The notes beneath the pieces were generated by a model. That model was not told where the DNA came from, ran no database searches, and was given only the letters and a program-made list of their open reading frames with translations. Below, one piece after another: positions 23,801 through 38,872 of a stretch of 64,000 nucleotides of DNA (positions are counted from its first letter, which is position 1; each line of letters starts with the position of its first letter). Position numbers and translations under genes: made by a program. The stretch comes from Escherichia phage vB_EcoA_4HA11. The stretch lies in sequence record MN445184. One strand, given 5' to 3'.

Positions 23801-25736
23801 TCCCTGAGATTGCTCCAGCGCTGGATAACAAGTTAGACTTGTAATACCCTGCATCACGCTGTCCGCCATCTAGGACGAAGCTGGAGGTCACGTCTGCGCC
23901 AGTATCGTTTTTGACCGACACCAATTTCCAACCATCGTGATTCGCCAAAGGGCGGCTAGTCTGCGAGGTGAACGTCACTGTTTCAGTTGTTTCAGTGATG
24001 GTCTTCGTTTTGATTGTGGCCGTGGTACGAATCATCAGCGCCAGCAAATTGATTGACTGGTTAGCATTACCACTGCCCAGAGAAATCTGCAACGCCGAAC
24101 CGACCGGAGAACCAGTCAAAGACAAAGAACCAGAGATATCGAACTGCGCTTCGGAACCATCAGATTTCGCTGCAGAGTACAACGAAAATTCTGGGGAAAA
24201 ACTATATCCCAATGGAGCAGAAATAGAACCCGCGCCGCTGTTGTCCAACGTCACTTTATACGTTCTGAGAACAGTGTAGTTGATATCCACGGAGCCAGTT
24301 GGTGCTAAAGTCTTGACACCGAATACCGGAAGAGAGAAGATCAGATCTATCATAGAACTCTGGTTAAACTGATTGGATTCCAGTTCAGCAGAGAACATGG
24401 TGATACCGCTTTCTTCGTAAGACACTTTGGTGATAGTGGATGCATCGCCAGTAACGACCAGGTCGCGCATATACAGACGAAATTCTGTTGAATTACGTTC
24501 AGCTGATATACAAAGTGCTGTAGCCTGGGTAACGCCTGAAGCATTCAGTAATTTGTATCGAACGGTGCGGGATATCACTGGCACACCTTTAGAATTCTTA
24601 GTGACCAGATAATTGCCTGTGGCCACCGCAACAGGGGTGTTGTTCAGGACATCGGTATCCCGCGCCTTATCAACGATCACCAACTCTTCCCCGACGTTTT
24701 CGATACGGCGACCGCGAACATAGGAAATACCTGGTTTCATTACAGACACGAATTTACTTTCGTCGCCGCCATCAGCAGCATTGAATACACCACCATTGTT
24801 ATTGACTTTCAGGTGTTCGCGGATGTCGATCTGGTGCGTTGAAACGTTGTAATCGCCGTTGGTTTCATACGTCCGTTGGGCCAACGTGTCTTCCAGAATA
24901 TTATAGGTGGACTGAGTCACCATAGACTGGATTTTACCATCACGAACTTTGGCCAGTTCAACAAAGTCTTCAACCACAGCATCATAATCAAATCGAGATA
25001 AGACCAGATCTATTCGAAGACGATGAGCGCCTGGGGCTTTGGAGTTAATCGTTCCCTGAGCATTTGAATAAAGGGATTCATCTTCTGTTTCAGTGACAAT
25101 GGTTTCGGTGACTTTAAATCCGATGCGGTGGGAAGTGATGTTAGAAGTTTTGTCAACGATAAGAGTTGCGTCATCAACGTCTAGGAACATCCCACGAATG
25201 AAGTAAACGCCTTTCGTCATACGAGCGACGATAGAACCAGTCACTGCAGCTGCGATACCATAACCAATACGAATGAAATTATCATTCACGTCGTAAGTCT
25301 GGAAATACAGATTATCGTTAACATGGAATCCGTCAGCATTACCCGCTTCAGTCATCTCAAGGATAGCCAGCATCGTATCAGGAGCAGACAGATCACGTTC
25401 AAGAGACAACACACGCGCTTTGGCATTATTGTCCTTCCCCAAAACGTAGAGTTCAGAAATACCTTCCAGATCAGTGAATTCAGTACCACCAGCCAAAGTG
25501 AATTTCAAAGAAACTGCGGCATTGGTGATCGTCAGACCGCCAGGGATAACCATAGAACCATCTTTGAACAAATGGTTGCCTAATTTTTCAATTTGATCCT
25601 GAAGAATAGTCTGCATCTGGTTCAGTTCGCGAGTCTGAACCTTGATAGGCATCGGACGAAAAAGAATCCGTGAAAAACGTTTCCCAGGATTCCAGTCATC
25701 CCAATACGGGCGACGGTTTAAATTTGTAGATTGCAT
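20898..25736 (-). CDS. very large virion structural protein (baseplate or tail-fibre associated)
   Basis: 1612-aa uninterrupted ORF, ATG with GGAG SD, TATAAATG and ACTAAATA boxes upstream; function not resolvable from sequence. Confidence 0.8.
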   Translation of the reverse strand: MQSTNLNRRPYWDDWNPGKRFSRILFRPMPIKVQTRELNQMQTILQDQIEKLGNHLFKDGSMVIPGGLTITNAAVSLKFTLAGGTEFTDLEGISELYVLGKDNNAKARVLSLERDLSAPDTMLAILEMTEAGNADGFHVNDNLYFQTYDVNDNFIRIGYGIAAAVTGSIVARMTKGVYFIRGMFLDVDDATLIVDKTSNITSHRIGFKVTETIVTETEDESLYSNAQGTINSKAPGAHRLRIDLVLSRFDYDAVVEDFVELAKVRDGKIQSMVTQSTYNILEDTLAQRTYETNGDYNVSTHQIDIREHLKVNNNGGVFNAADGGDESKFVSVMKPGISYVRGRRIENVGEELVIVDKARDTDVLNNTPVAVATGNYLVTKNSKGVPVISRTVRYKLLNASGVTQATALCISAERNSTEFRLYMRDLVVTGDASTITKVSYEESGITMFSAELESNQFNQSSMIDLIFSLPVFGVKTLAPTGSVDINYTVLRTYKVTLDNSGAGSISAPLGYSFSPEFSLYSAAKSDGSEAQFDISGSLSLTGSPVGSALQISLGSGNANQSINLLALMIRTTATIKTKTITETTETVTFTSQTSRPLANHDGWKLVSVKNDTGADVTSSFVLDGGQRDAGYYKSNLLSSAGAISGTYTVVYQYFAHSSGDFFSADSYTSMDYKDIPNYTSSTSGAVYGLADSLDFRPKITNGTSDTDMVRPNTAVILDTEYYLPRIDAIYLADNGVFGVARGISSNNLASPAIPANAMRLYELLIPPYTPNIDDIQIRTIDNRRYTMRDIGKLETRISNVEYYTSLSQLESSAMTQQVFDPITGNPRFKNGIAADPFKDFRLIDDLSEDWMGSIDTENGRLRPFVQQNVVDMTPVGWNKVMDGMVVCNYTPEISVNQEYATTTINVNPYAVFNWEGFLKINPTTDYWFENYYVAPRIINETINTRGTVQEGSVYGTWRTVSVSDRVWEPHGAGGVWWGYRYRTTVSARDVTTYTYTDKTTTTMTGEQIVETQVIPYMREIDISFDASGLRPFTRMYAFFSGRDVNLYCKPNGGNFGDPITTDANGAVKGIFRVPQNDTIKFNTGDNVFRLTDSPVDSKSADDTLTNAEIVHKSFGKKQGIQKTFVNTRVLGYTASTRTETSTSEVVVDQWRDPIAQSFMVATKNGGEYIEGVEVFFSTKSRDVPITLEIREMENGLPSHTVITRKTLNPSEVTISTDSSGGTKFTFDYPVYLQASTEFAIVLLANTQDYNAYIAEMGKKNLLSNEYIAKQPYTGVFFTSSNGSTWSPNQMADMKFRIYRCNFAAGQNVVTFDPKLGPKQRPLGLNTLNCVSGSSVVTVFAPGHGLVAGNNVTLSELTGGCGFTPEQLNKTFTVTDASYTSFKIDVGTAADSNGQIGGDNASFLGNYLVDMFYASVTNSALEGSILKLEYRYRDATSNSMSDWAEFETDTDVALPTEGIYRQVGDFQIRATMTRSENNVYTAPMIDGDDLSVIFNSYGVDPFEDVFKYVTKDIGFDNPCSTVKLFFGAMLPSQSSMKVQVKLLRAGQEMDSVAWEDVTPTSPLVNDGSTFFEYEYDKTVASNNPFVGLKVRALVRGNRVAPPSFKDFRLIALA

Positions 25737-25801: not shown

Positions 25802-25828
25802 TAAAACCCCCGCCGAAGCGGGGTTTTT
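25802..25828 (-). terminator. intrinsic terminator after tailspike gene
   Basis: CCCCCGC-UUCG-GCGGGGG hairpin plus U-run. Confidence 0.6.
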
Positions 25829-25829
25829 A

Positions 25830-28142
25830 CTATGATCCTATAATTTTATAGGTTAGAGAAGTATTACCATCAACTGGATCAGCATCTATTCCTGTCGGTC
25901 TTGACGCTGTCTTAACCATGACACCAGCGATAGTTTGTCCAGCTGTTGCACCTACATACTTAGAACAATTTACAGAATAGAATAATTGCCTGTATTCAAT
26001 ATTACCCTGAATCTCACTTAGTACAACATAGGCCGCACCAGAATCCACTGGGCAGTTAGTATGTATGTTTACTTTTTCCGTGGTGGAGACTCTAAACATA
26101 TGGCCGCCATCTGTAGATATACCAGCAAGCCCAATTAATGATAATGTCCCACCGGTTTTGATAAGGAAGCTACTACCAGAATTTGCCTTCAAGCTACCAG
26201 TACCTTCAAAATTAACCATCGGCAACTCCGTGTTAGAGGTAATGGCTATCTCACCTGGGTTAAGATAAACTCTTTTGCACTTGAATAGCTGGCATAACTT
26301 TGAAATATTAAGTAGCTCTCTTATAGGTTTGGTTCCGTTAAATCCCCAGTTGTAGTTATTACCATTTACAGGATCTATGTATAGAGTGTCTGCTTTTACA
26401 CCAACAACATCTTTGATATAGAAAATGTCACCAACTTCCCCAAATTGGAATTGACTTCCCATATTTGTACAGTCGAGTACCAATGTAGGGTAGTTACCAG
26501 TACCTCTAACGAGTTTTAAACCACCTACTGGCATTTGTCCTCTGACAACATTTCGAGCAGTTTCTGGGCAGTTTTTAAGGAAGTACATACTATCTAGATC
26601 AGGGTCTTGTCCGGAAAGACCTACCCCTGACAACGTAACATCTGAACTGGTATTGATCAGGTAGAAACTATGTTTTTTCTTCCCACCAGATGATTCAATG
26701 TGGGGTTTATCAACCATAAATAAACCGTAGGAATCAGTATCCCGGCCAGCGTGAACAAAGTCGAATGATGCTTGTTCGATGATTGGGCTATTAAACTTAA
26801 CCTCTGAACCTGCAAACTGAGTGATGGCAACATCACCTACCTCAGTAAACCCTGCTGGTTTATACACCGCTTGTTCTAGCTCACCATTGGTATTACCAAG
26901 GCGGGAAATGTAAGCATTGTTTACAGTAGCACCGCCATTAGAGTCAATGAACACTGCGCCCTGAGTTTTATACAGGATGCGTAGATTTTCATGAACAGAA
27001 CCCCATGATGCTGACTGCAACAATCCTACTCTTGGCAGTCTTGCTGTTGTAATATCGCTCCCTGTATTCTCCCCAATAGATAACCCTTTTGTAGTGCAAC
27101 CTGCCCCACCTATCCATTTAACACCAACCTTTACACCTGGTGCTGTAATCAGGTTAAGGTTACTAATATCAATTTTTCTGGCACATGTTACAGCGTACCC
27201 ATTATCAATATCTAACCCAGTAGGATAATAATCTACATCTTTATTGAGTTTGTATGAACCATCGGGTTGTTTACGGTACACCATTAAGCTGATTGCTGCT
27301 GTATTCTTATCTACTGGGTCATAAAACAATCCTTGCTTACACTCACGAGTAAAAAAGTTTGGTGCTGGCATTTCAATTGAAACACCTGGGGGTATGTATA
27401 GCGTCTCTGTGAAACGGTATAACTTGGTCAGGTTAATTTTTACTGCTACTTTCTCCATGTACGAGTTTACAGCCGCAGCATCAGGAAGTGTTTCAGGAAC
27501 GTTGTTTATGTCTGAAAGCATTTCTTTTAATTTTGAAGTATCGTCAGCTATTCCGTCGCCTACCGCATTGTACTGTTCAGGTGTGCGTACAGTTAATACA
27601 TTATTTAGCGTCCCGTGCGGATGAACTCCAATCAACGAGCCATTGCCGTTTGCCAGTTGTGTTCTCAAAGAAGCATCACCAACACTAACCCACGCGCCAA
27701 GACCAATACCACCAGTTGATGCAGGAGTTGAACCGGCAGGGACAGCTTTAGGTAATGCTCCATCCCAGCGATACTTACCATCTGTATAAGTGAGTAATTC
27801 ATTTTTAACGTTAAGCGTAGAACCAGAATCAAACGAACCAGGTAAGGTTACGTATTCTTCACGAGATACAGCTAATGCGCCTAAGTCTACAGAACCTGCT
27901 GAATGTACAAGTACAGCAGCAGTATTAAGACTGACGGCAGTAGTACCAGAAGCAATACCAGCAGGTAAGGAATAAGCTCTTTGCGTTTCCTTGTCATAGA
28001 TAACTTTATACCCCCCTAAATCTACACCAACCGAAAAGTAAACAATCTCAGATTGCTTAACCCCAAAGTGTCTAGCTACTGCTTGTTTGTTGGTTAGGAT
28101 TCCAGTTGAACCCTTACCACCTTGACTAAACATCTCGTTCAT
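25830..28142 (-). CDS. tailspike protein with shared N-terminal anchor module (TSP1-like, 770 aa)
   Basis: N-terminal ~150 aa (VSREEYVTLPGSF...KYRWDGALPK..AGSTPASTGG.GLGAWVSVGDA) near-identical to the 698-aa and 1167-aa proteins; divergent C-terminal domain. Confidence 0.8.
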   Translation of the reverse strand: MNEMFSQGGKGSTGILTNKQAVARHFGVKQSEIVYFSVGVDLGGYKVIYDKETQRAYSLPAGIASGTTAVSLNTAAVLVHSAGSVDLGALAVSREEYVTLPGSFDSGSTLNVKNELLTYTDGKYRWDGALPKAVPAGSTPASTGGIGLGAWVSVGDASLRTQLANGNGSLIGVHPHGTLNNVLTVRTPEQYNAVGDGIADDTSKLKEMLSDINNVPETLPDAAAVNSYMEKVAVKINLTKLYRFTETLYIPPGVSIEMPAPNFFTRECKQGLFYDPVDKNTAAISLMVYRKQPDGSYKLNKDVDYYPTGLDIDNGYAVTCARKIDISNLNLITAPGVKVGVKWIGGAGCTTKGLSIGENTGSDITTARLPRVGLLQSASWGSVHENLRILYKTQGAVFIDSNGGATVNNAYISRLGNTNGELEQAVYKPAGFTEVGDVAITQFAGSEVKFNSPIIEQASFDFVHAGRDTDSYGLFMVDKPHIESSGGKKKHSFYLINTSSDVTLSGVGLSGQDPDLDSMYFLKNCPETARNVVRGQMPVGGLKLVRGTGNYPTLVLDCTNMGSQFQFGEVGDIFYIKDVVGVKADTLYIDPVNGNNYNWGFNGTKPIRELLNISKLCQLFKCKRVYLNPGEIAITSNTELPMVNFEGTGSLKANSGSSFLIKTGGTLSLIGLAGISTDGGHMFRVSTTEKVNIHTNCPVDSGAAYVVLSEIQGNIEYRQLFYSVNCSKYVGATAGQTIAGVMVKTASRPTGIDADPVDGNTSLTYKIIGS

Positions 28143-28164
28143 ACATACCTCTTTGTTTTTCTAG

Positions 28165-28195
28165 TAAGCCCCTCCTAAGAGGGGTGTATTTTTTT
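28165..28195 (-). terminator. terminator-like hairpin after tailspike gene
   Basis: CCCCTC-CTAA-GAGGGG hairpin with T-rich flank. Confidence 0.5.
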
Positions 28196-30959
28196 AAATA
28201 GAAGAATCCAATATACGGTAACTAATTAACTTAGTAGGGTCTACCGGATTAATCAGATTGTAGTATCGTGAGGCTACATAATCGTTCTCGGAAGAGAACA
28301 TACCAACATACACTTTAGCGCCCACCCCAGAACAAGCATCCCCACCAGCATTGCTATCTGAGAAGAACGTTAATGGGGAAGTTAATCCGAATATAGAATT
28401 AAATGGTACGGCTAAATAAGCGCCTCGGAATGACCGTCTGATTCTCTTACCCGTCTGAATATTAAGAATACTCCACCAGAAATATCCTGGTTTAGCACCA
28501 ATAGCTATATGATATGGTACACCACTTTGTAGTTTAAGGTCGTTAGGTAAATCCCCAGATAAAATTTGGGTTGTACCATCGCCCCCCAATAGCAAAGCAA
28601 TTGTTTGTTTTCCAGAAGCGTCTATAACTAATTGAAGATGAAGACTGTTGGATGTATCACTAAACCCTGAACCAATGGCCATGAAGTTAAATACTTCAGC
28701 TCCAGATATGGTGGGTACTACAACAGCAGCCATGGTAATACCTTCTGGACCTGCTGTTCTTGAATACAGTAATTTATCTTTGTTGGCTTGTGATAGTCTC
28801 AGACCATTTACTTGCCCTACAGAAGATGGGACACTTACATAAACAGGTGTAGTGCTAACACCATCAAATGTAGGGGTCTCGTTCATGGTTTGCAAACCAG
28901 TCTTGGAATAATTAACCAATCCGTTAATGCTCAGGTCGGAATTGGTGGGGTTGATAATATTGTTATCACCAATAAAGTTAATGCCCATATAACCAGTCTC
29001 AACCACACCATTAATGGTGACACTACAATCATTAGACAGGAACTGAAAATTGCCTGCACTAGAGTTAGCACCTGAACCACTATTCGCGGCATAATTGAGT
29101 CCTACGAATCCGTTGATAACTGCATCACTTTTGTTAAATACGATGTTGTAGAAAGTGTTGTTAGCATTGATGCCGTTACGATTGGTGTTCAATCCGTTCA
29201 TGGAAATTGAATATGAATCGCTAATCTCAATGCCATTCCCGCCACAATCTTGTACCTCAATACCATTAATAACCATATTCTGGCTGTTATTAATAGTAAT
29301 GCCTGGAAACTGTCCTACTGTACCATAAGGTTGCCAGTTAGCCCAAATGAATTTACCGCCAATAATACGACCATTACCACAACCATCAAGAACTAGACAT
29401 TGTTTACCGCAGGTATTAACCTGGATATTTGTCCAAGTCCAATCAGTAGTAGCACAACGGACACCCACCTGATTGATGTGGTTGACTAAAAGAGAATCTG
29501 TAGTAACACTAAAGTTACCACTATCAATATTTAACCCATATTCATCAAAACCTGCTATATGGACCTTAGAAATACACAAGTCCCGTCTTGGGTCTGCGGT
29601 AGTGTGGAACGGATAATCGGCTGAGAGACCTGAAGGAGTTTCTACATAGATACCTGTTGTGCCCGCAGTAAATGACGTGCCTTGTTGTGCACCTGTGCCA
29701 TATACCCCAAAGGCGTCTAATACAATAAGGGAGCATGTATCTTTTATGGTAATACAATTCCCAGTAGCAGAAGGCAACTGATGCAACCTTGAGTAATGTA
29801 ATCCAGACCCATAAATAGACGACGTATTATATTTTAACTGGATATTGCTAACGTAATGTACACCAGTTAATTGTGTGGCCTTACCACTATCCACACAAGA
29901 TTGTACTGGAATAGTATCATCATTAGAACCACCCAAAGCACCAAACATGAATGGGTTAACTCTATCAGCATTAACACGTAACCATGCTGCGCCGCCAACA
30001 GTTTTGATCACAGTACCGTTATTATCAGTCTTTCCTGTACCATCAATTAACGCACGGAATACCCCTCCACCAAGAAGAGTACCCGCAGTGTGTTGCTTAA
30101 GAATAATGCGTTGTCCATCCATAGTGGGTTCAGTATTCCTGAGATCAGCAACAGAATGGCATTCTCCAATATACTTGGCACCATCATTGCGCCCCAGAGT
30201 GTTTATCACATTAATAAATGAATCTTCTAAAGGCAACAAATCAACCTGCACATCACCTGGGTTGTAATTCAATTTCCCAGCAGATACAGAAGAAATGACA
30301 GAACCATCAGGAATGGTTGGTAAACCATAACTGGTTTGCGTCGCTATATCATAAACAACTTTCTTCCCATCCAACAAAGATATGGTGTCCGTACTAACGA
30401 TGACTTCAGAGTCTTTTACATTAGCAGAACGGGCGATTTCTTGAATACTTCGGTCAAACGCCGGACTGATATTCGGTTGTTTAACAGACATTTCAGCGAC
30501 TACCCAAACGCCTGCAGTCAGTGCAGTTTGCAAAGACACTTTCCCTGTCGTGCTGTTATAGGAATATTCAATTTCGGGTGTTTTGTACTCGCCACCGATA
30601 TAAAGAGATTGGACACCATAGGATGTGAAATCAGGAGTGAACTCGGTTTCACCCCCTACGGCTTGAAATTTGTATATGCGGATACCTTTGGCTGTATCTT
30701 CTGGCGAAAGAATTTTATCGAATAAGCAATACACAACATCGCCTTTGGACAATGCGCGCCCGAGATTCAACGTATTTCCTTCGATTTCAAAGTTGTCTAA
30801 GGGAACTTGCATACCACCGTTGATTGTGACTACGCCAGTGACAGGATAGAACGGCAAGGAAAGGAAAGTTTCTCCACCAACATTTGATTTATACGTGAAA
30901 GGAATCTGGTGGGGAGCTGTGATTACGCCGCCGAATAATTCTTCTACATTTCTGGTCAT
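28194..30959 (-). CDS. tailspike protein (TSP2-like, about 921 aa)
   Basis: Divergent copy of the shared module internally; start taken as MTRN by analogy with the conserved leader; in-frame ATG 15 nt upstream cannot be excluded. Confidence 0.75.
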   Translation of the reverse strand: MTRNVEELFGGVITAPHQIPFTYKSNVGGETFLSLPFYPVTGVVTINGGMQVPLDNFEIEGNTLNLGRALSKGDVVYCLFDKILSPEDTAKGIRIYKFQAVGGETEFTPDFTSYGVQSLYIGGEYKTPEIEYSYNSTTGKVSLQTALTAGVWVVAEMSVKQPNISPAFDRSIQEIARSANVKDSEVIVSTDTISLLDGKKVVYDIATQTSYGLPTIPDGSVISSVSAGKLNYNPGDVQVDLLPLEDSFINVINTLGRNDGAKYIGECHSVADLRNTEPTMDGQRIILKQHTAGTLLGGGVFRALIDGTGKTDNNGTVIKTVGGAAWLRVNADRVNPFMFGALGGSNDDTIPVQSCVDSGKATQLTGVHYVSNIQLKYNTSSIYGSGLHYSRLHQLPSATGNCITIKDTCSLIVLDAFGVYGTGAQQGTSFTAGTTGIYVETPSGLSADYPFHTTADPRRDLCISKVHIAGFDEYGLNIDSGNFSVTTDSLLVNHINQVGVRCATTDWTWTNIQVNTCGKQCLVLDGCGNGRIIGGKFIWANWQPYGTVGQFPGITINNSQNMVINGIEVQDCGGNGIEISDSYSISMNGLNTNRNGINANNTFYNIVFNKSDAVINGFVGLNYAANSGSGANSSAGNFQFLSNDCSVTINGVVETGYMGINFIGDNNIINPTNSDLSINGLVNYSKTGLQTMNETPTFDGVSTTPVYVSVPSSVGQVNGLRLSQANKDKLLYSRTAGPEGITMAAVVVPTISGAEVFNFMAIGSGFSDTSNSLHLQLVIDASGKQTIALLLGGDGTTQILSGDLPNDLKLQSGVPYHIAIGAKPGYFWWSILNIQTGKRIRRSFRGAYLAVPFNSIFGLTSPLTFFSDSNAGGDACSGVGAKVYVGMFSSENDYVASRYYNLINPVDPTKLISYRILDSSI

Positions 30960-31037
30960 TTGAAAATACCCCATAAGGATTTGCCAATATGGGGTATTTA
31001 GTCTGAACTAATAAAATTTATGAACAAAGGTATAATA
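30960..31037 (-). promoter_or_regulatory. conserved inter-tailspike cassette: ACTAAATA box plus leader hairpin (AAUACCCCAU/AUGGGGUAUU)
   Basis: About 90% identical to 33172-33248; hairpin 3' arm carries GGGG just 5' of the start codon. Confidence 0.5.
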
Positions 31038-31062
31038 AGAACCCCGCCAAAGCGGGGTTTTT
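31038..31062 (-). terminator. intrinsic terminator after tailspike gene
   Basis: CCCCGC-UUUG-GCGGGG hairpin plus U-run. Confidence 0.6.
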
Positions 31063-31074
31063 GCTCAAGATAAA

Positions 31075-33171
31075 TTAAAGTGTGTATGTTACATAACTTC
31101 CATCTGGTTTTTTAGCAAGCAACCTCAATGCTCCGTCACTTCCGAAGAAGAATCCTATAGATGAATTATGTTCCAGAGCGCTCTCTGGTAATTGTAAAGG
31201 GGCAGCAGGTATACTCATATGCTTAAAGCCTAAGCGGTTAAGCTGAAACTCACCTACACGTACACCCTCCTGAATTGCCGAAAGCTTGACAATACTTGCC
31301 TCACCCCCTGGTGTAGCAACCTGGCAATCTGCCGTCATAAGCAAAGATGGGTTTGTAGTACCACCCATAGCAGGTTGCATTGCAAGTGTCATTTGGTTGG
31401 CACTATGCTGAACATTGATATTACCTCCCTGAATATCGCTTATATAGGTACATAGTAATTTCTTAGTACCGGAACCAGCACAGGAAACATTACTTACTTC
31501 TGAAGACGGAGCGTATATAGCGTAACCTTGTGTAGTATATGCATGGATGTTAATACCACGAAGTCTACTACCTCCCTCACAGGTAAGCTGATTTAGGTTA
31601 GTTAAATCCTTATTCGCACCTACTACAGTAATGTTAGTAATATCATTGTTAGTACCCCTATCGAAGACGCCTTCCTTATGGGCCTCATAAGTAACAACAT
31701 TATCAATAATATTTTTCTGACCATCCCACCAAGCACCAATCCCCATACAATCACGAGTAATAATATTACGGATGATATGTTGAGTAGGTAGGTGGAACCA
31801 TGGATACTCTGCGAGTGAGTAGTCATCCACACGTTCAGTTGGCGACCCTGTGTCAGCATTAACATCAATACCATCATAGTAACACTGGATTGTAGTTATA
31901 TTGTCGAACACTAAACGGTAGTTCCTGGCTGAACGACCTCCAATTTCGTTCTGATAGGTTTTAATACCTGATTCTCCAACACGGTATGAGATTAAATCCC
32001 TTACTCCACCATCATGGTCTGTACCACCATCATTGCGAATGAACAGTACAGCGGAACCAGAGCCATATTTTATCTCACCCCCAACAACCCAGTTGCCAGT
32101 ACCCCATGCAGTTGTATGATGGTTCTCAAATGTAATGCCCGATTCCAAAGCAATAAAATTGCGTGGATTCTTAACAAGAATCCTATTACATAAAGTAAAT
32201 AGATAACCACCAAATGTAGCTTCTGGGTTCTCTACGATGATATTATCGCCGCTCATTATTCGCAAAGTAGCACCAGCAACCTGATTTTTTACATTATCAG
32301 GAAGGTCGTCCCAAATATCTAAATCGTTAATATTTGGCTTATATCCAACATCCAAACGCTGCTGAACAGATGCCAGAACTTGTGTTGGGTCTGTAACCCA
32401 ATTACCGTTTGCATCGAATCGGTAAACAGTATACGGCGTAGTTTTAGTATGCATGTGCGGTTTCTTAATTACTGAACCCGCACCCAAACCATTCCAAACC
32501 AACATACCATCGCCAATGAATTTTCCTTTGCATTCAATGATTAAAACTTTACCGCTAAAATCTACATTCTCATCTGCAGTAAAAGTGTAGTCAACATCAA
32601 TAAGCAATCCATCTACGGCTGCTGTCGCTGCATCCTGTAATGTAGAATAATCAGATAACTTTACTGAATATTTGAATTTCTTATTAGCTTCCTGCCTAAA
32701 TGCAGCATCACCAACACTAACCCAAGCACCTAAACCAACGCCACCAGTTGATGCTGGAGTTGAACCAGCAGGAACAACTTTAGGTAATGCACCATCCCAT
32801 CGATATTTTTCATCATCGTGAACAAGAAGTTCATTTTTCACATTAATAGTATGGCCGAAATTAAAAGAACCAGGTAAAGTCACATATTCTTCGCGGCTTA
32901 CTGCTAATTCCCCGAGATCAACAGAGCCAGAAGAATGAGTAAGGATGGCTTGTTCGTTCAGACTTATCGCAGTCGTTCCTGAAACAATACCTGAAGGAAG
33001 AGAATAAGCCCGTTGGGTAGACTCATCATAAATTACTTTAAATCCGCTGAGATCAATACCGACAGTGAAATAAATGACTTCGTCTTCTTTGACACCGAAA
33101 TTTCGAGCGATAGATTGTTTGTTAACTTCTATGGAAGTGGAGCCGCGTGGTTGATTGAATTGAGAAATCAT
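31075..33171 (-). CDS. tailspike protein (TSP3-like, 698 aa)
   Basis: Shared N-terminal module; ATG start after conserved leader. Confidence 0.8.
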   Translation of the reverse strand: MISQFNQPRGSTSIEVNKQSIARNFGVKEDEVIYFTVGIDLSGFKVIYDESTQRAYSLPSGIVSGTTAISLNEQAILTHSSGSVDLGELAVSREEYVTLPGSFNFGHTINVKNELLVHDDEKYRWDGALPKVVPAGSTPASTGGVGLGAWVSVGDAAFRQEANKKFKYSVKLSDYSTLQDAATAAVDGLLIDVDYTFTADENVDFSGKVLIIECKGKFIGDGMLVWNGLGAGSVIKKPHMHTKTTPYTVYRFDANGNWVTDPTQVLASVQQRLDVGYKPNINDLDIWDDLPDNVKNQVAGATLRIMSGDNIIVENPEATFGGYLFTLCNRILVKNPRNFIALESGITFENHHTTAWGTGNWVVGGEIKYGSGSAVLFIRNDGGTDHDGGVRDLISYRVGESGIKTYQNEIGGRSARNYRLVFDNITTIQCYYDGIDVNADTGSPTERVDDYSLAEYPWFHLPTQHIIRNIITRDCMGIGAWWDGQKNIIDNVVTYEAHKEGVFDRGTNNDITNITVVGANKDLTNLNQLTCEGGSRLRGINIHAYTTQGYAIYAPSSEVSNVSCAGSGTKKLLCTYISDIQGGNINVQHSANQMTLAMQPAMGGTTNPSLLMTADCQVATPGGEASIVKLSAIQEGVRVGEFQLNRLGFKHMSIPAAPLQLPESALEHNSSIGFFFGSDGALRLLAKKPDGSYVTYTL

Positions 33172-33248
33172 GATAATACCCCATAAAGGATGACCAATAT
33201 GGGGTATTTAGTCTGAATTAACAAAATTTTATAAACATGGATATAATA
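33172..33248 (-). promoter_or_regulatory. conserved inter-tailspike cassette copy 2 (ACTAAATA box plus leader hairpin)
   Basis: Near-identical to 30960-31037. Confidence 0.5.
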
Positions 33249-33273
33249 AGAACCCCGCCGAAGCGGGGTTTTT
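33249..33273 (-). terminator. intrinsic terminator after tailspike gene
   Basis: CCCCGC-UUCG-GCGGGG hairpin plus U5. Confidence 0.6.
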
Positions 33274-33274
33274 A

Positions 33275-36200
33275 CTATGATGTAAATTTCATTGCATCCC
33301 ATGTTGTACCATTATGTCGATACCCGAAAATATTTGATGCCCCAGCAATAACATCATATCTGTCACCAGACGCATTACCAAAAGGCCTGTCAGGAACAGA
33401 AGTTGTGTCAGTTGCTAAAATGCCTTTAAACCACCATCCATTCTGGGTGTTTGGTTTGTATTTGTAAAATTGTTTAACATATGGTTGAGTTGGCGAGTCA
33501 ACATTAATTTGCCCATGAATACCAGCGTATCCGTATAAAGGTTCACTGGTATTCACATCACTGTATACATCAATGTTGAAGTAGTAATCCTGTACGGATA
33601 GTGGAGCTATCCCAAGCGCTGGATGCATCCATCTATCTGTTTTAATATCAGCAGTGAATTGCACAACACCAACAGTCACTCCTGCTGCTTGTTGCAATAA
33701 ACCCAGGACACCACCAAACTGACATTTTGTCATATTCCATTTAATATGCATTTCATCAAGGTGAACAAGATAATCGTTGGCAAATTTATTGGTAAACCTT
33801 ATGGCTGTGTTGTCTGATAATTGAGGTGAACCGTTGGTCCCGCAAGAGACAAAAGAGTCATTGCTGTTGAAAGTAGCACCTGTTTTTTGTTTACCCAAGC
33901 GAACACACCCCCAAAAACCTGAGAAAGTGTTATTTTCACTAACAACTTCTTTGAAATAGTCCAGGTCATAAGCAACGTTTGCAGCTTTTTGTTCAGTTGT
34001 CCAATCTGCGGCTCTGTTTTTTTGCAATATGTTATTATTTGCAGAGTAAATAATTGCATTAATAGTGGTTGGGTCAGATGACAAAACAGACGGCTGCTGT
34101 GTTGTGAATGCCGCAGTATTAGGATACCCGATAACTTGCTTTTCTGATCGTAGCGTTACAGTATTACCAATAAATCTGGCAACAGTTGTAACGTTAGGTA
34201 CGGTATCCAGAACCAAAGCACTACCTGCGTCCTCACAGACGTTATTTGTGAAGGTGACTATAGATGTCGATGTAGCACCGTCGTTAGCCTTCAGGAATGG
34301 GTAGCGAGCTTTTTTGGTGATGCATCCATCAACGATCCCATTACCATGACACTCAAATACCGTACACATGTCTGACATGGTTGGCTGGATACATTTAACG
34401 TTATTTATAACGTAGCCATCGGAATGAATTCTTATTGATGAGTGGTCTATTAGGTTACTGTTTCCAGTCACAGCGTCAGCAACGCGATAGAAGTTGCAAT
34501 TCTCTACACGCGTATTGTAGCTGTTGAACGCTGCCTGAGCTTCCTGGAATACCATTACGTTTGCACCAGGAGCATTCTTGACGTTAACTCCAGAAACAGT
34601 CACACCATTACTACCTTCGTAACAAGCTACTGCTGGACAATGAGCTTGTGCTCCAGACCAGTTCAATGGCGGGACAAGGTTATTGTCACCATTTTCATCA
34701 ATTAGCATATCGTGGACATATGCGTTCTGAATTTCACGAATACCATCACCGAAAACTACAAAGCCTTTAGTGCCCCCGTTTTCCTTATTGCGCTCAACAA
34801 CACCATCGGCAACATACAGTAACGTTGCGTCGCCATCGCCGATGAAAGTAACGTTGTTGCGAAGAAAAATCATAACTTCCTGATTACGATAAATAGTCAG
34901 ACCATGCGCCGTGCCTTCCACAAGAGTCGTTTTATCCAACAGATAAGTGCCAGCAGGAACCATGACAACTTGCTGGGATCCGAATAGTTCCGCACGTTTC
35001 TCCGCATGATAACCTGCGAGGTTTATAGCATCGACCGCGTCTACACCGATCTTATCTGCGATAGAATAGTTGTTATCAGCACCCCAGTTTGTAACAGACT
35101 GCCAATCATAATCTGTTAAATATCCAACACAGTAAAAATCGGGATAGTCTGGAACAGTTCCCGGCGCTACTGTATAACCACCACTTTGTATAGCACCATA
35201 TTTAACCCAGAAAAGACCACTTGAATCAACAAGAGCTTGCTCGTTGGTGGTTAAAACTGAACCTTGCAAGAAAGACCCAAACTTCTCGAATTTACTATTG
35301 ATATAATTATTAGCTACCCACTGGCGGGCAGTGGCATCACCAACACTCAACCACGCTCCCGAACCAACGCCTCCAGTTGTTGCAGGTGTTGAGCCAGCAG
35401 CTACAGTTTTAGGAAGTGTACCATCCCAACGATACTTTCCATCAGTATGGGTGAGTAATTCATTTTTAGTATTGATGACAGCACCAGAATCAAATGTCCC
35501 AGCCAAGGTAACATATTCTTCACGAGATACAGCTAATGCGCCCAGATCAACACTACCAGCAGAATGTACAAGCACAGCCGAAGAACTAAGGCTGACTGCC
35601 GTGGTTCCAGTCGGTAACTCTGGAATAAAATATGATCTCTGTGTTATTTTATCGTAGATAACTTTATACCCGCTTAACACAGCACCAACACTAAAATAAA
35701 CGACCTCTGTATCTTTAACATTGGTTACACGAGCCACTTCCCGCAAAGTATAATCAATTTGATTATAGATGTTTGGCGTTCCATTGATAATTACAACAAC
35801 TTCATCCTCTGCATCCAGTTCTTGCGCAAGAGTGATTTTACTGGTTAATGGATCGAATGTGAACCCCAGATTTTTATACTGGCGACTTCCGTTTATATCA
35901 ATGGCCGGAACATCATCAACAACGACGTCTAACGTGATTTCGGTTTCACCGCCAATCGCTGAACCCCCATTATAGACCCAAGTAATCGTAGAAGAACTAG
36001 AATCACCGCCATTACCCAATTGAATAGGAGTATATTCAATCACCTGAAGTTCTGTGCTGGCTGGCAAAGAAGGACTGAAAGTGATTACATTCCCATCTAG
36101 TGAATATTTGGATTCCGCAAGACGTTTTCCGTCAGCATACACGTCCACGATTGTTGGTGGAGTATTGAGAGTGACAGCACTTGTTTCAGACGCCAAAATT

Positions 36201-36778
36201 TGTGTAAAGATTTCACGACTGTAGACACGGCCTTGACCAAGACCGACGCCGGATGTAATAACCCAACCTTGTTCAGGTCCAGACCAAGTGAACGTTGCTG
36301 ATACGTTATCAGTTGTTATAGCCATGTCTTCAGTGGAGCCATACAAATTATTTCCAGAAGGAGACACGGTCAATGGGTAAGTGGCAAATTTCCCATAAGC
36401 ATCACAAATAGTAACGGAATCCCCAATACGCGTAGGGGGAGGGAGAACCACTGTAGATGCCCCTGTGGTATTATTAATGAGATAGCCACGACCTTCTAAC
36501 AAATTGCTAGAGGGAGCGTGAGGGAGCGTTTCCCAGCGTATTCCACCACCCCCCAAAGACAACCAACCACCGTTTTCGTAATAACCTTCAAATTCATCAC
36601 TATCAGGATTGTAACGCACAGAAGATGGAAGACCTGTAACTTCAGTATCTTCAGGAAATGTCATTACGGCACCAGGGGAATGCTCAATAGTGCCGGAGTT
36701 GTTGAAGCCTTTTATGTTCGAAGACTCAGAAGTTTCTAAACCCAAAGGGAAAAGAGGCTGTGTTGGTTTGTTGGCCAT
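33275..36778 (-). CDS. tailspike protein with extended N-terminal region (TSP4-like, 1167 aa)
   Basis: Shared module located internally (about residues 330-480) after a ~330-aa N-terminal extension. Confidence 0.8.
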   Translation of the reverse strand: MANKPTQPLFPLGLETSESSNIKGFNNSGTIEHSPGAVMTFPEDTEVTGLPSSVRYNPDSDEFEGYYENGGWLSLGGGGIRWETLPHAPSSNLLEGRGYLINNTTGASTVVLPPPTRIGDSVTICDAYGKFATYPLTVSPSGNNLYGSTEDMAITTDNVSATFTWSGPEQGWVITSGVGLGQGRVYSREIFTQILASETSAVTLNTPPTIVDVYADGKRLAESKYSLDGNVITFSPSLPASTELQVIEYTPIQLGNGGDSSSSTITWVYNGGSAIGGETEITLDVVVDDVPAIDINGSRQYKNLGFTFDPLTSKITLAQELDAEDEVVVIINGTPNIYNQIDYTLREVARVTNVKDTEVVYFSVGAVLSGYKVIYDKITQRSYFIPELPTGTTAVSLSSSAVLVHSAGSVDLGALAVSREEYVTLAGTFDSGAVINTKNELLTHTDGKYRWDGTLPKTVAAGSTPATTGGVGSGAWLSVGDATARQWVANNYINSKFEKFGSFLQGSVLTTNEQALVDSSGLFWVKYGAIQSGGYTVAPGTVPDYPDFYCVGYLTDYDWQSVTNWGADNNYSIADKIGVDAVDAINLAGYHAEKRAELFGSQQVVMVPAGTYLLDKTTLVEGTAHGLTIYRNQEVMIFLRNNVTFIGDGDATLLYVADGVVERNKENGGTKGFVVFGDGIREIQNAYVHDMLIDENGDNNLVPPLNWSGAQAHCPAVACYEGSNGVTVSGVNVKNAPGANVMVFQEAQAAFNSYNTRVENCNFYRVADAVTGNSNLIDHSSIRIHSDGYVINNVKCIQPTMSDMCTVFECHGNGIVDGCITKKARYPFLKANDGATSTSIVTFTNNVCEDAGSALVLDTVPNVTTVARFIGNTVTLRSEKQVIGYPNTAAFTTQQPSVLSSDPTTINAIIYSANNNILQKNRAADWTTEQKAANVAYDLDYFKEVVSENNTFSGFWGCVRLGKQKTGATFNSNDSFVSCGTNGSPQLSDNTAIRFTNKFANDYLVHLDEMHIKWNMTKCQFGGVLGLLQQAAGVTVGVVQFTADIKTDRWMHPALGIAPLSVQDYYFNIDVYSDVNTSEPLYGYAGIHGQINVDSPTQPYVKQFYKYKPNTQNGWWFKGILATDTTSVPDRPFGNASGDRYDVIAGASNIFGYRHNGTTWDAMKFTS

Positions 36779-36782
36779 TTGT

Positions 36783-36823
36783 AATACCCCTAAATGTATT
36801 CATGTCATCTAGGGGTATTTAGT
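36783..36823 (-). promoter_or_regulatory. ACTAAATA box plus leader hairpin upstream of the 1167-aa tailspike
   Basis: AAUACCCCUA/UAGGGGUAUU 10-bp stem ending 5 nt before the ATG. Confidence 0.45.
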
Positions 36824-36824
36824 T

Positions 36825-38015
36825 TTAGAAAGAAGCTGCAATAGAATAATCGACAGAACAAGCGGTTGTTGTATTCGCATTAACAACGGAAATTCTCAAT
36901 TTACCACCCACCACAGCCCCTGTGAACGTCACTGTACCACTCGTACTTTTCTGAACCAACAACTCTGATTTGATCGTTCCGTCACGAGTTATGGTTACTC
37001 GATATGTGTCAACAACGTTACCCGTCCCCCATTGCGCAGTTACCAGTATTTGACAAAGGTTCACCAAATCAAAATCTGGAAGAGCCGTCGTTCCAGAAGC
37101 CGAAACCGTGTATGACGACAAGTTTGTTTTTGTGCGATAAACTGCGTTCCCTAAACTGTTATCAATTGTGGTCATTTTGGCATTATACGTTGATACATCG
37201 ACCTTACCAGTCGTGAGAGAACTGATACTGCCGTCCAAGGAAGTCATCTTCGTATTATATGTGCTGACCTCGACTTTATTACCCAGAGACGTGTTGATAT
37301 TGGAGATACTCAAATCCAACGACGCCATCTTAGTGTTGTAAGTCGAGGTGTTGACTTTCCCGTTCAACGACGTGTTGATGTTATTAATTTGAGACTCTAA
37401 ACTCAGCATATCTGCATCATACGCTGTCGTTGTCACATATCCATTAAATCGGTTATCTGCAAACAACGCATCAAAAAATGCAGTCATTGCCCAATAACGC
37501 GCTCCAGAATCTGTTTGTACTGGAACTGAAGTCGGCAACGTTGGTCCGGTATACGCAGACAATCTGGTGAAATCCAAATTGAATTTGTAATATCCGGATG
37601 TCAACAACTCCCCAGCCAAACCAGAACCAGGCGGGGTAGTGTCTTCACTGACGCCATGCTTTCTCAACATGCTCAGGTTAACACCATCTGTCGAGTTCGT
37701 TGGTTCATCTGTGATTGAAACGGATTTTCCAGCAGGGACTTGTATACCCCCATTGGTCACCAACAAAGCATTGAAAGTCTTTTTGCCATTGATTGTTTGT
37801 TCACCACTATCTGTCCGAATAACTTTGTTGGCCAAAGTATCATTGATTGTGTCAACAGATCTTTTCAACTCGTATGTCAGGCGAGCAGACGGTGGAAACA
37901 ATGGGTCGCTGACTTCAAAATCATCAATGACGTCGTTTTTACTTACTTTGTCGTCAACAGAACCCAATATCTGATCTATCTGCTGACCTGTATATTGACT
38001 CAGGAAATCGGCCAT
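36825..38015 (-). CDS. fibrous protein with tandem peptide repeats (short tail fibre or fibritin-like)
   Basis: Four tandem ~23-27-aa repeats (STYNTKM.SLD.SISNINTSLGNKV); position among baseplate/fibre genes. Confidence 0.65.
   Translation of the reverse strand: MADFLSQYTGQQIDQILGSVDDKVSKNDVIDDFEVSDPLFPPSARLTYELKRSVDTINDTLANKVIRTDSGEQTINGKKTFNALLVTNGGIQVPAGKSVSITDEPTNSTDGVNLSMLRKHGVSEDTTPPGSGLAGELLTSGYYKFNLDFTRLSAYTGPTLPTSVPVQTDSGARYWAMTAFFDALFADNRFNGYVTTTAYDADMLSLESQINNINTSLNGKVNTSTYNTKMASLDLSISNINTSLGNKVEVSTYNTKMTSLDGSISSLTTGKVDVSTYNAKMTTIDNSLGNAVYRTKTNLSSYTVSASGTTALPDFDLVNLCQILVTAQWGTGNVVDTYRVTITRDGTIKSELLVQKSTSGTVTFTGAVVGGKLRISVVNANTTTACSVDYSIAASF
37128..37421 (-). repeat. in-frame tandem repeats (about 70-80 bp unit, 4 copies) inside the fibrous-protein gene
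   Basis: Repeated peptide unit seen in translation; coordinates derived from residue positions. Confidence 0.6.
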
Positions 38016-38017
38016 TT

Positions 38018-38872
38018 TTAGCTCCTTGTGCTTTCTAGGAATACAGTAAATCCAGCAGGATGAAAATGCTGACGGAAGACGCGCTCAAACACACCTTCAA
38101 AATCAGATACGTCGCCTGGGACTCCTATAACATAAGTGTATTCATCATAATAGTAATCATCACGCATCCCTGTCTTGCCGTCACATTCAAAATTTCCGTC
38201 CAGACCGCCTATGTCTTCTTTCGTAAAATAGACGCTGACTGGACAACCGAAATATATCCAAAAGAACAATTCAATCGCTTTCTTTGTTCCACGTATTTTA
38301 TAGATGTGTTTCAACAATTTCAGCCAACGCGGATGATCCAGAGTTCTCCGTTTCGTTCCTTCGATATAAACAGAGAACGTATCGCCCGTGGCCGTCAATA
38401 AAGAATCCGAACCGACTGGGATAAAATGTCCAAATTCTTGAAATGATTTATCAACAGTTCGTTGGAAACCAAAATCATTATACCAGTCATCTATCTGTTT
38501 GTTCTTATCTTCTATTGACAGTAGCGGCCTTCCGTCGGAATCTAAAAGTTCTTCGGCATCCAGAGCCATCATGTTCTCAAAGGTACGAACCAAGAATTTA
38601 TCAGACAAATAATCCTTGGCCTCTGAGCCTGGGGTCTTGTCAGCCTTTAAATCAATCAGCTGTTTAACTGGAGAATCTTCACTCTCAGGATTCATCCAAC
38701 TAGACGTATCCGCCAGATATGCCAAGATCTCTTCTTGAGTGAACCCCTGCTGTCTATACAACCAATTGAAAAACGTGTCCATAAATTCTATGAACAGAGG
38801 GAAATCATTCTGGTAGAACAACGGAGTTTCATACTTAACCCCGTTGTGTCCATTATTAAGATCTTTGGACAT
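38018..38872 (-). CDS. baseplate-associated protein (start reset)
   Basis: Start moved to ATG (MSKDLNNG) with AGAGGTG SD; overlaps the end of the gp6-like gene. Confidence 0.5.
   Translation of the reverse strand: MSKDLNNGHNGVKYETPLFYQNDFPLFIEFMDTFFNWLYRQQGFTQEEILAYLADTSSWMNPESEDSPVKQLIDLKADKTPGSEAKDYLSDKFLVRTFENMMALDAEELLDSDGRPLLSIEDKNKQIDDWYNDFGFQRTVDKSFQEFGHFIPVGSDSLLTATGDTFSVYIEGTKRRTLDHPRWLKLLKHIYKIRGTKKAIELFFWIYFGCPVSVYFTKEDIGGLDGNFECDGKTGMRDDYYYDEYTYVIGVPGDVSDFEGVFERVFRQHFHPAGFTVFLESTRS

Follow-up and report, generated by a model that had tools for sequence, protein, structure and literature searches.

The genes at positions 25830-36778 of the window, the whole 64,000-nucleotide stretch of DNA that was analysed, are the tsp1-tsp4 cluster of a virulent Kuttervirus myophage (Ackermannviridae, SFP10/S117-like) and encode a branched four-tailspike receptor-binding complex, a reading that is given a probability of about 0.96. 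The original prediction had described four adjacent genes on the minus strand between these positions, encoding proteins of 770, about 921, 698, and 1167 aa; four adjacent minus-strand open reading frames span exactly this interval, and their lengths agree with those sizes. The genes are ordered tsp4-tsp3-tsp2-tsp1 between baseplate wedge genes and a VriC-like gene, and the same layout is seen in S118, CBA120, and S117.

36825..40688 (minus strand): upstream context, comprising a 396-aa conserved protein, a baseplate wedge subunit (PF23786), and a gp6-like baseplate wedge protein
33275..36778 (minus strand): tsp4, 3504 nt, 1167 aa, subtype TSP4-1
31075..33171 (minus strand): tsp3, 2097 nt, 698 aa, subtype TSP3-1
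28194..30959 (minus strand): tsp2, 2766 nt, 921 aa, subtype TSP2-1
25830..28142 (minus strand): tsp1, 2313 nt, 770 aa, subtype TSP1-1
20898..25736 (minus strand): downstream context, a 1612-aa VriC-like protein with DUF4815

Over all 10,949 nt, the cluster DNA is 99.3-99.7% identical to that of S118, S115, LPEK22, STP-4, S117, and SFP10, and the genes are labelled tail spike 1-4 in the Kuttervirus records of the matching genomes. The three blocks of the window that were searched (1-25000, 25830-36778, and 39001-64000) are 95-99.7% identical to, and colinear with, S117, SFP10, and BPS6. Kuttervirus-like genes for terminase, portal, capsid, sheath, baseplate, DNA polymerase, and phage tRNAs are found along the 64 kb, with tRNA-Met, tRNA-Asn, and tRNA-Ser present as in the relatives. 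DNA identity, structure matches, and flanking genes thus all support the earlier assignment to an Ackermannviridae multi-tailspike complex like that of CBA120, and BLASTP against Ackermannviridae tailspikes gave clear homology, with TSP1-4 matching the S117 and CBA120 spikes.

The S117/SFP10 cluster (species Kuttervirus SFP10) has the same gene order, orientation, lengths, and flanking genes, and the intergenic promoter-hairpin cassettes of S117 are the same as those found here. TSP4 is 100% identical to its S117 counterpart and TSP3 to its counterparts in both S117 and S118, while TSP1 (99.2%) and TSP2 (99.3%) each differ from the S117 proteins by six amino acids. The flanking 25-kb blocks, however, are only 95.5-98.3% identical to S117/SFP10, and the window therefore derives from a distinct isolate. 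In S118 and S115, which are the closest relatives over the whole cluster, tsp1 is frameshifted, whereas it is intact in this phage, for which plating is accordingly predicted on Salmonella O:21, E. coli O157, and Salmonella O:4/O:9.

The intergenic regions contain recurrent motifs and hairpins. CTAAATACCCC, which has been cited as an Ackermannviridae regulatory motif (PMC7283392), forms the 5' arm of the hairpin upstream of tsp4, and the 3' arm, GGGGTATT, stops 5 nt short of the ATG. The intergenic cassette upstream of tsp2 is repeated whole upstream of tsp3, with 86-87% identity.

36812..36822 (minus strand): CTAAATACCCC motif upstream of tsp4; hairpin fold -19.1 kcal/mol, z -5.7
33251-33270: tsp4 terminator hairpin, preceding the tsp3 motif and hairpin
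33201..33211 (minus strand): CTAAATACCCC motif and hairpin upstream of tsp3; fold -20.9 kcal/mol, z -4.6
31040-31059: tsp3 terminator hairpin, preceding the tsp2 motif and hairpin
30991..31001 (minus strand): CTAAATACCCC motif and hairpin upstream of tsp2; fold -18.7 kcal/mol, z -4.0
25808..25823 (minus strand): candidate GC-rich hairpin terminator beyond tsp1, where the cluster ends

A promoter scan showed no enrichment of sigma-70 promoters in the cluster (29 sites vs 38.6 expected), and host-type promoters are therefore no useful explanation for its expression. An in-frame ATG at 30974 would prepend MGYFQ to TSP2 and extend it to 926 aa, the 921-aa start being Met6 at 30959. This longer reading was rejected: the additional start codon falls within the conserved hairpin upstream of the gene, and the equivalent ATG at the same position upstream of tsp3 is out of frame. 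The 921-aa protein is the annotated and crystallised form.

Each of the four proteins can be divided into N-terminal assembly domains and a C-terminal body.

35750-36778 (minus strand): TSP4 baseplate anchor (AD) and XD1-XD2-XD3, residues 1-343
35333-35749 (minus strand): TSP4 head D1-D2, residues 344-482
33278-35332 (minus strand): TSP4 orphan receptor-binding body, residues 483-1167
32701-33171 (minus strand): TSP3 head D1-D2, residues 1-157
31078-32700 (minus strand): TSP3 P22/9NA-type endorhamnosidase body
30492-30959 (minus strand): TSP2 XD2-XD3, about residues 1-156
30189-30491 (minus strand): TSP2 single D1 head domain, about residues 157-257
28197-30188 (minus strand): TSP2 body
27648-28142 (minus strand): TSP1 head D1-D2 and neck, residues 1-165
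25833-27647 (minus strand): TSP1 beta-helix glycosidase body

The module shared by TSP1, TSP3, and TSP4 is the D1-D2 "head" of the tailspikes, which serves for docking and as a spacer and ends in GAW(V/L)SVGDA right before the neck. It stands at the N-terminus of TSP1 and TSP3 and inside TSP4 (about residues 344-490), as had been proposed. The earlier description of the three copies as near-identical holds as far as homology is concerned, but not in degree, as they share only 56-72% identity over about 145-185 aa: in BLASTP, TSP1 and TSP3 are 72% identical over 162 aa (E 1e-73), TSP1 and TSP4 71% over 146 aa (E 2e-59), and TSP3 and TSP4 56% over 185 aa (E 2e-53). Conservation reaches 76-85% pairwise (56/66, 52/66, and 50/66) in the 66-aa D2 block, VSREEYVT...SVGDA, which occupies residues 92-157 of TSP1, 91-156 of TSP3, and 417-482 of TSP4 and is matched by Tail_spike_N (PF18668) at TSP1 91-156 (E 1e-25), TSP3 90-155 (E 2.5e-30), and TSP4 416-481 (E 5e-24). 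The profile search gave no PF18668 match in TSP2, and the divergent stretch that had been ascribed to this protein proves to be D1-like, about 35% identical to the other heads (35% to TSP1, E 5e-5; 35% to TSP3, E 6e-8). Residues 100-244 of TSP2 also align to residues 274-417 of TSP4 (34% over 146 aa, E 1.5e-16) through shared XD-type domains, a relationship between these two proteins that had gone unremarked. Phages exchange their receptor-binding bodies at the SVGDA end of the head, and the breakpoints relative to CBA120 fall directly after it, at residue 157 of TSP3 and residue 482 of TSP4.

The bodies of TSP1-3 all match solved beta-helix glycosidases, and that of TSP4 models as a beta-helix depolymerase, so that a carbohydrate-active fold is found or predicted in every C-terminal domain. 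TSP1 matches CBA120 TSP1 (4oj5) over its full length with 1636 bits and conserves the catalytic residues D313, E456, and E483 (PMC7506556), E456 and E483 being the acid/base residues; S117 TSP1 has Salmonella O:21 as its receptor (PMC8432352). TSP2 matches 6w4q with 2069 bits, from residue 6 of the 926-aa query, as well as 5w6p, and conserves D506, E568, D571, and Y623, the first three of which are acid/base catalytic residues; its receptor is E. coli O157 (PMC7506556, PMC8432352).

TSP3 is composite. Residues 1-166 match the head of CBA120 TSP3 (5w6f), while residues 156-698 match the 9NA tailspike (3riq; PMC5015238) at 84.7% identity. The PF09251 profile aligns to residues 161-697 as a full-length family match (355 bits, curated cut-off 25, E 6e-106). 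Within conserved local motifs, E400, D433, and D436 of TSP3 align to Glu359, Asp392, and Asp395, the catalytic residues of the P22 tailspike. S117 TSP3 recognizes and cleaves the Salmonella O:4/O:9 O-antigen (PMC8432352), and the same cleavage has been shown for the 85% identical 9NA tailspike (PMC5015238).

Residues 1-338 of TSP4 match 7rej/7rfo (732 bits), and 5w6h was also matched. The 685-aa body of TSP4 models as a beta-helix depolymerase fold in an AF2 prediction of moderate confidence (pLDDT 62.5, from a seven-sequence alignment) that covers all but the last 70 or so residues. Full-length relatives, 52-81% identical, are the tailspikes of unrelated phages of P22-like, lambdoid, and T7-like kind, and the 81% identical body lies on a P22-like phage (contig SRR23362621_212). 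For four other phage backbones, the alignment starts at residues 485-488 or, in the two relatives with Tail_spike_N, at residues 416-425 inside D2. The GTDB species-representative scan returned no relatives. A lambdoid contig was rejected as a clue to the host, as E. coli prophage tail backbones match it at 88-93% but never over the tailspike gene, and a P22-like and an ECBP5-like contig, only 77-80% identical to phages of several genera, give no host. The sole relative with an assigned host is the tailspike of a prophage integrated beside thrS in Citrobacter freundii TUM17564 (GCA_020889125.1). An O-antigen-type acyltransferase gene follows the gene for the relative in two prophages; such an arrangement usually marks an O-antigen-specific spike accompanied by a gene that modifies the receptor and blocks superinfection. 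It is tentatively suggested, as a possibility of rather low probability, that the TSP4-1 body is enzymatically active as a depolymerase and has a receptor beyond the tested Salmonella and E. coli panels, most likely a Citrobacter O-antigen or a serogroup sharing its structure. If this were true, SFP10/S117-like phages would be three-genus phages. The Citrobacter prophage relative offers a cheap, testable lead to the receptor of a body carried by at least 37 Kuttervirus records.

A competing explanation of the TSP4-1 body is that it is non-enzymatic or vestigial, TSP4 serving only as a scaffold through its anchor and XD domains, as in the Limestonevirus phages, whose TSP4 has no receptor-binding domain. 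Purified S117 TSP4, 100% identical to the protein described here, did not produce a clearing zone on any of the strains tested (PMC8432352, Table 4), S117 recombinants without most of tsp4 stay infectious, and the receptor was still unidentified in 2024 (PMC11414711), with no identifying paper found in the literature from 2024 onward; nor have catalytic residues been identified in the body. However, the strains tested with S117 TSP4 were Salmonella and E. coli only, the body is conserved at 98-100% identity in at least 37 Kuttervirus records, its helix region keeps 11 invariant acidic residues (D678, D694, D698, E721, D768, D778, D787, D803, E809, D833, and D850), and the full-length relatives act as tailspikes in unrelated phages; a non-enzymatic or vestigial body is regarded as unlikely.

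Two further alternatives concern the heads and the region as a whole. The likeness of the heads might reflect recent gene conversion among three in-genome paralogues, rather than an old duplication kept for docking, since the copies are direct repeats located within 8 kb of sequence and tsp-gene recombination has been observed experimentally in S117 (PMC11414711). Yet DNA identity among the copies is only 73-79% across 277 nt and 64-71% across the neighbouring 91 nt, whereas orthologues exceed 90%, and no long identical tracts shared by paralogues but absent from orthologues were found. Each head is closer to its CBA120 orthologue (90-100% aa identity) than to its in-genome paralogues (56-72%), and the heads therefore diverged before CBA120 and the SFP10-like phages separated; recent conversion was rejected on these grounds as very improbable. 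That the region is a prophage or a bacterial polysaccharide-utilisation locus might be considered from the occurrence of beta-helix glycosidases in bacteria (pectate lyases and alginate lyases are among the fold matches) and of TSP4-body relatives in prophages. The colinearity of the entire window with 157-kb Kuttervirus genomes makes this idea hardly credible, and a blastn search (word-11) for the TSP4 body found no match among 5,426 complete E. coli genomes.

For the Kuttervirus tailspike cluster, the following mode of action can be proposed from published work on receptors and assembly (PMC8432352, PMC8825819, PMC7506556, PMC11721090, PMC11414711). Trimeric TSP4 would be held on the baseplate by its N-terminal anchor domain; its XD2 would bind XD2 of TSP2, and its XD3 would dock the D1 head of TSP1. 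After TSP4 and TSP2 have joined into a complex, XD3 of TSP2 would dock the D1 head of TSP3. Each C-terminal body is predicted to form a trimer, to be a right-handed beta-helix glycosidase, and to bind and cleave a single surface polysaccharide, namely Salmonella O:21 for TSP1, E. coli O157 for TSP2, Salmonella O:4/O:9 for TSP3, as a P22/9NA-type endorhamnosidase, and probably some further glycan for TSP4. The original proposal of a different polysaccharide target for each C-terminal domain is thus borne out for TSP1-3, through the S117 proteins (PMC8432352), and is unproven for TSP4. We infer from the 93-100% identity of the assembly domains that the four trimers probably assemble as in CBA120, and this particular phage is expected to behave like its near-identical relatives in both receptors and assembly order.

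The cluster, its domain architecture, three of the four receptors, and its use as a modular engineering platform have all been published, and little is added here as discovery. The branched complex of CBA120, which has been demonstrated by ultracentrifugation and crystallography (PMC8825819), has the same architecture (4oj5, 6w4q/5w6p, 5w6f/6nw9, 5w6h, and 7rej/7rfo). CBA120 TSP1 is 93.2% identical to that of this phage, TSP2 99.2% over 921 aa, the TSP3 head (1-157) 93%, and the anchor, XD, and head domains of TSP4 (1-482) 98%, or 94-100% per 50-aa block. After the SVGDA junction, in contrast, identity falls to 17-18% in TSP3 and TSP4, whose bodies have been replaced: those of CBA120 target E. 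coli O77 and O78, while this phage has a 9NA/P22-type body on TSP3 and an orphan body on TSP4. The TSP3 body shares 84.7% identity with the 9NA tailspike's receptor-binding domain and 33% with P22 gp9 (PF09251), and its Salmonella serogroup range agrees with that of 9NA and P22 (O:4, O:9). The N-termini differ, as TSP3 carries an Ackermannviridae D1-D2 head in place of the head-binding domain of P22 and the siphovirus adaptor of 9NA. XD-type beta-jellyroll domains also serve as trimer-on-trimer docking platforms in T4 gp10 and in gp66/gp63.1 of coliphage G7C (PMC8825819), a likeness at the fold level only, drawn through identity to the N-terminal part of CBA120 TSP4.

The tailspike locus of vB_EcoA_4HA11 belongs, on sequence grounds, to the Kuttervirus four-tailspike complex. 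As originally predicted, it consists of four adjacent minus-strand genes:

25830-28142, minus strand: tsp1, 770-aa ORF
28194-30974, minus strand: tsp2, 926-aa ORF if read from its first ATG, 921 aa if started at the ATG at 30959
31075-33171, minus strand: tsp3, 698-aa ORF
33275-36778, minus strand: tsp4, 1167-aa ORF

The 921-aa TSP2 is the form that has been annotated and crystallised. The start of the 926-aa form (30960-30974, minus strand) falls in the upstream hairpin, on its 3' arm, and the corresponding ATG before tsp3 is not in frame.

A megablast search of the 10,949-nt tailspike region against 50,697 phage records returned full-length matches (99.3-99.7% identity) to S118, S115, LPEK22, STP-4, kage, aagejoakim, S117, and SFP10, which are Kuttervirus genomes (Ackermannviridae, Cvivirinae) whose records name the four genes tail spike 1, 2, 3, and 4. 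These genomes are also colinear with the rest of the window (95-98% identity), which encodes terminase, portal, capsid, sheath, baseplate wedge, and DNA polymerase, and carries three tRNA genes found in related Kuttervirus genomes (Met-CAT, Asn-GTT, and Ser-GCT; 44027-45348, plus strand). The window is thus part of a virulent Kuttervirus genome. TSP3 and TSP4 do not differ from their S117 and S118 counterparts (100% identity), while TSP1 and TSP2 are 99.2% and 99.3% identical to those of S117, and 93.2% and 99.2% identical to those of the structural model phage CBA120. The subtype combination (TSP1-1, TSP2-1, TSP3-1, and TSP4-1) is also that of S117, SFP10, kage, and aagejoakim (PMC8432352). 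Every defining feature testable by sequence was found, except an enzymatic TSP4 body, for which there is fold-level support only; the original prediction is correct and describes a system that is already known.

The flanks (1-25000 and 39001-64000) are 95.5-98.3% identical to S117, versus 99.3-99.7% for the tailspike cluster to S117/S118, and no single record is the best match for all three blocks (1-25000, 25830-36778, and 39001-64000). The genome is thus mosaic, a pattern that fits exchange of the entire tsp cluster among Kuttervirus phages. The cluster is also 98.5% identical to that of MN871475.1, "Pseudomonas phage Pa-sanjiao" (host P. aeruginosa PAO1); the match statistics of this record are the same as those of Salmonella phage Se-U, and its host label looks doubtful.

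The solved structures of related tailspikes define the domain anatomy of the four proteins. TSP1 matches CBA120 TSP1 (4oj5) end to end, and TSP2 matches full-length CBA120 TSP2 (6w4q, 5w6p) from Met6 of the 926-aa ORF. TSP3 aligns with the head of CBA120 TSP3 (5w6f) over residues 1-166, and its residues 156-698, which include PhageP22-tail (PF09251), best match 3riq (84.7% identity), the phage 9NA tailspike (PMC5015238), followed by the Det7 and P22 tailspikes. In TSP4, residues 1-338 correspond to crystallised CBA120 TSP4-N (7rej, 7rfo, and 7rfv), which comprises the T4 gp10-like domains XD1, XD2, and XD3 in addition to the baseplate anchor domain (PMC8825819), and residues 344-486 correspond to the 5w6h head. 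An XD-type region is common to TSP2 and TSP4 (E 1.5e-16).

The N-terminal module that the original prediction described as near-identical in three of the proteins is real, and its quoted peptide strings occur in TSP1, TSP3, and TSP4, but it is less uniform than claimed: pairwise identities are 72%, 71%, and 56% over 146-185 residues (BLASTP E-values 1e-73, 2e-59, and 2e-53 between pairs), and identities of 76-85% are confined to the quoted 66-residue block VSREEYVT...SVGDA (TSP1 92-157, TSP3 91-156, and TSP4 417-482). As DNA, the copies are 73-79% identical. The structure matches, and the placement of Tail_spike_N (PF18668) in TSP1, TSP3, and TSP4, identify the module as the D1-D2 (TD1-TD2) head. 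Pfam places no Tail_spike_N in TSP2, which carries a divergent, D1-like stretch with about 35% identity to the other heads, as predicted; TSP2 is known to have D1 only (PMC7506556).

Directly behind ...SVGDA, identity to CBA120 falls from 93% to 18% past residue 157 of TSP3, and from 98% to 17% past residue 482 of TSP4. For relatives of the TSP4 body without Tail_spike_N (n = 2), alignment starts at TSP4 residues 485-488, and for those with it (n = 2) at residues 416-425. The identity drops and the alignment starts of the foreign-backbone relatives mark the end of D2 as the exchange point for receptor-binding bodies in the tsp locus. An additional conserved site, GTTAVSL at the D1 end, has been proposed earlier (PMC8432352).

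The published catalytic residues of TSP1 (E456 and E483, plus D313) are kept. TSP3 E400, D433, and D436 are the conserved equivalents of E359, D392, and D395, the catalytic residues of the P22 tailspike. TSP2 keeps its published residues D506, E568, D571, and Y623 (PMC7506556). Experiments on the S117 proteins identified Salmonella O:21 as the target of TSP1, E. coli O157 as that of TSP2, and Salmonella O:4 and O:9 as those of TSP3; TSP4 gave zero clearing on all strains tested (PMC8432352). TSP4 was without an assigned receptor as of 2024 (PMC11414711), and no later paper identifying one was found. The window's tsp1 is intact (2313 nt), whereas the 99.9%-identical S118, S115, and rabagast records span 2314 nt, with one extra base, and the gene is annotated as frameshift-split in S118 and S115; vB_EcoA_4HA11 should keep the O:21 specificity presumably lost in the frameshifted phages.

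The TSP4 body (residues 483-1167) is the sole part of the four proteins with no solved structural relative by sequence. Its AlphaFold2 model, from a 7-sequence alignment, is of moderate confidence (pLDDT 62.5, pTM 0.69), with the final ~70 residues poor; the top Foldseek match in the PDB was the tailspike of HK620 (E 1e-7, TM 0.5), and further beta-helix proteins came next. The modelled fold supports an enzymatic body, and none of the four proteins was found to lack a carbohydrate-active fold. The body is rare, with only 7 clusters among 5.8 billion proteins, and in the phage collection it is limited to 37 Kuttervirus records (98-100% identity). Its relatives occupy four unrelated backbones:

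P22-like podophage contig: 81% identity, fused to the P22 head-binding domain
Lambdoid siphoprophage (L005): 61% identity
ECBP5-like podophage: 60% identity
Citrobacter freundii TUM17564 prophage by thrS (L007): 73% and 50% identity, gene in pieces

Neither the set of 5,426 complete genomes of E. coli nor, by pattern scan, the GTDB representatives yielded a relative. The Citrobacter prophage (GCA_020889125.1, BQGP01000002.1) lies directly upstream of thrS-infC-rpmI-rplT-pheST, and its spike copy is split into two or three ORFs. In both prophages an Acyl_transf_3 gene follows the spike gene (L007 10001-13645; L005 10001-13622), and probably serves O-antigen acetylation. These observations give a weak, testable lead towards a Citrobacter-type O-antigen as the TSP4-1 receptor.

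The assembly scheme derives from CBA120 biochemistry (PMC8825819, PMC11721090), and we infer it here because the assembly domains are near-identical to those of CBA120. The TSP4 anchor would attach to the baseplate, TSP4 XD2 would pair with TSP2 XD2, TSP4 XD3 would hold the TSP1 head, and TSP2 XD3 would hold the TSP3 head.

The window contains four exact copies of CTAAATACCCC, which is listed among Ackermannviridae regulatory motifs (PMC7283392), and three of these copies directly precede tailspike genes:

30991-31001, minus strand: upstream of tsp2
33201-33211, minus strand: upstream of tsp3
36812-36822, minus strand: upstream of tsp4
48536-48546, plus strand: before the ORF starting at 48570

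At up to one mismatch, 6 matches were observed in the window versus 0.76 expected. In all four exact copies, the 3' half of the motif doubles as the 5' arm of a hairpin of 10-14 bp (-18.7 to -20.9 kcal/mol; z-scores -4.0 to -5.7), whose 3' arm, GGGGUAUU, ends 2-7 nt ahead of the start codon. Pairing in the tsp4 hairpin is retained despite changes in both arms, and the arrangement is also kept in CBA120 and S117. Terminator hairpins lie behind tsp4, tsp3, and tsp1. A cassette of ~105 nt (terminator hairpin, AT-rich spacer, promoter motif, and hairpin) is duplicated upstream of tsp2 and tsp3 (30961-31065 and 33171-33276; 86-87% identical), and is more conserved than the neighbouring coding heads (73-79%).

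The motif is absent from the tsp1 upstream region; given the 51-nt tsp2-tsp1 gap, the two genes may be co-transcribed. The sole structure in this gap is a GC hairpin (28168-28185) with its T-tract on the strand that does not encode the genes (plus); as it has no U-tract on the coding strand, efficient termination of tsp2 transcription there is unlikely.

The motif resembles the T4 late promoter TATAAATA, and its placement within a hairpin appears analogous to the layout of T4 e, soc, and gene 49, where the ribosome-binding site is occluded in read-through transcripts but not in late ones, which start inside the hairpin.
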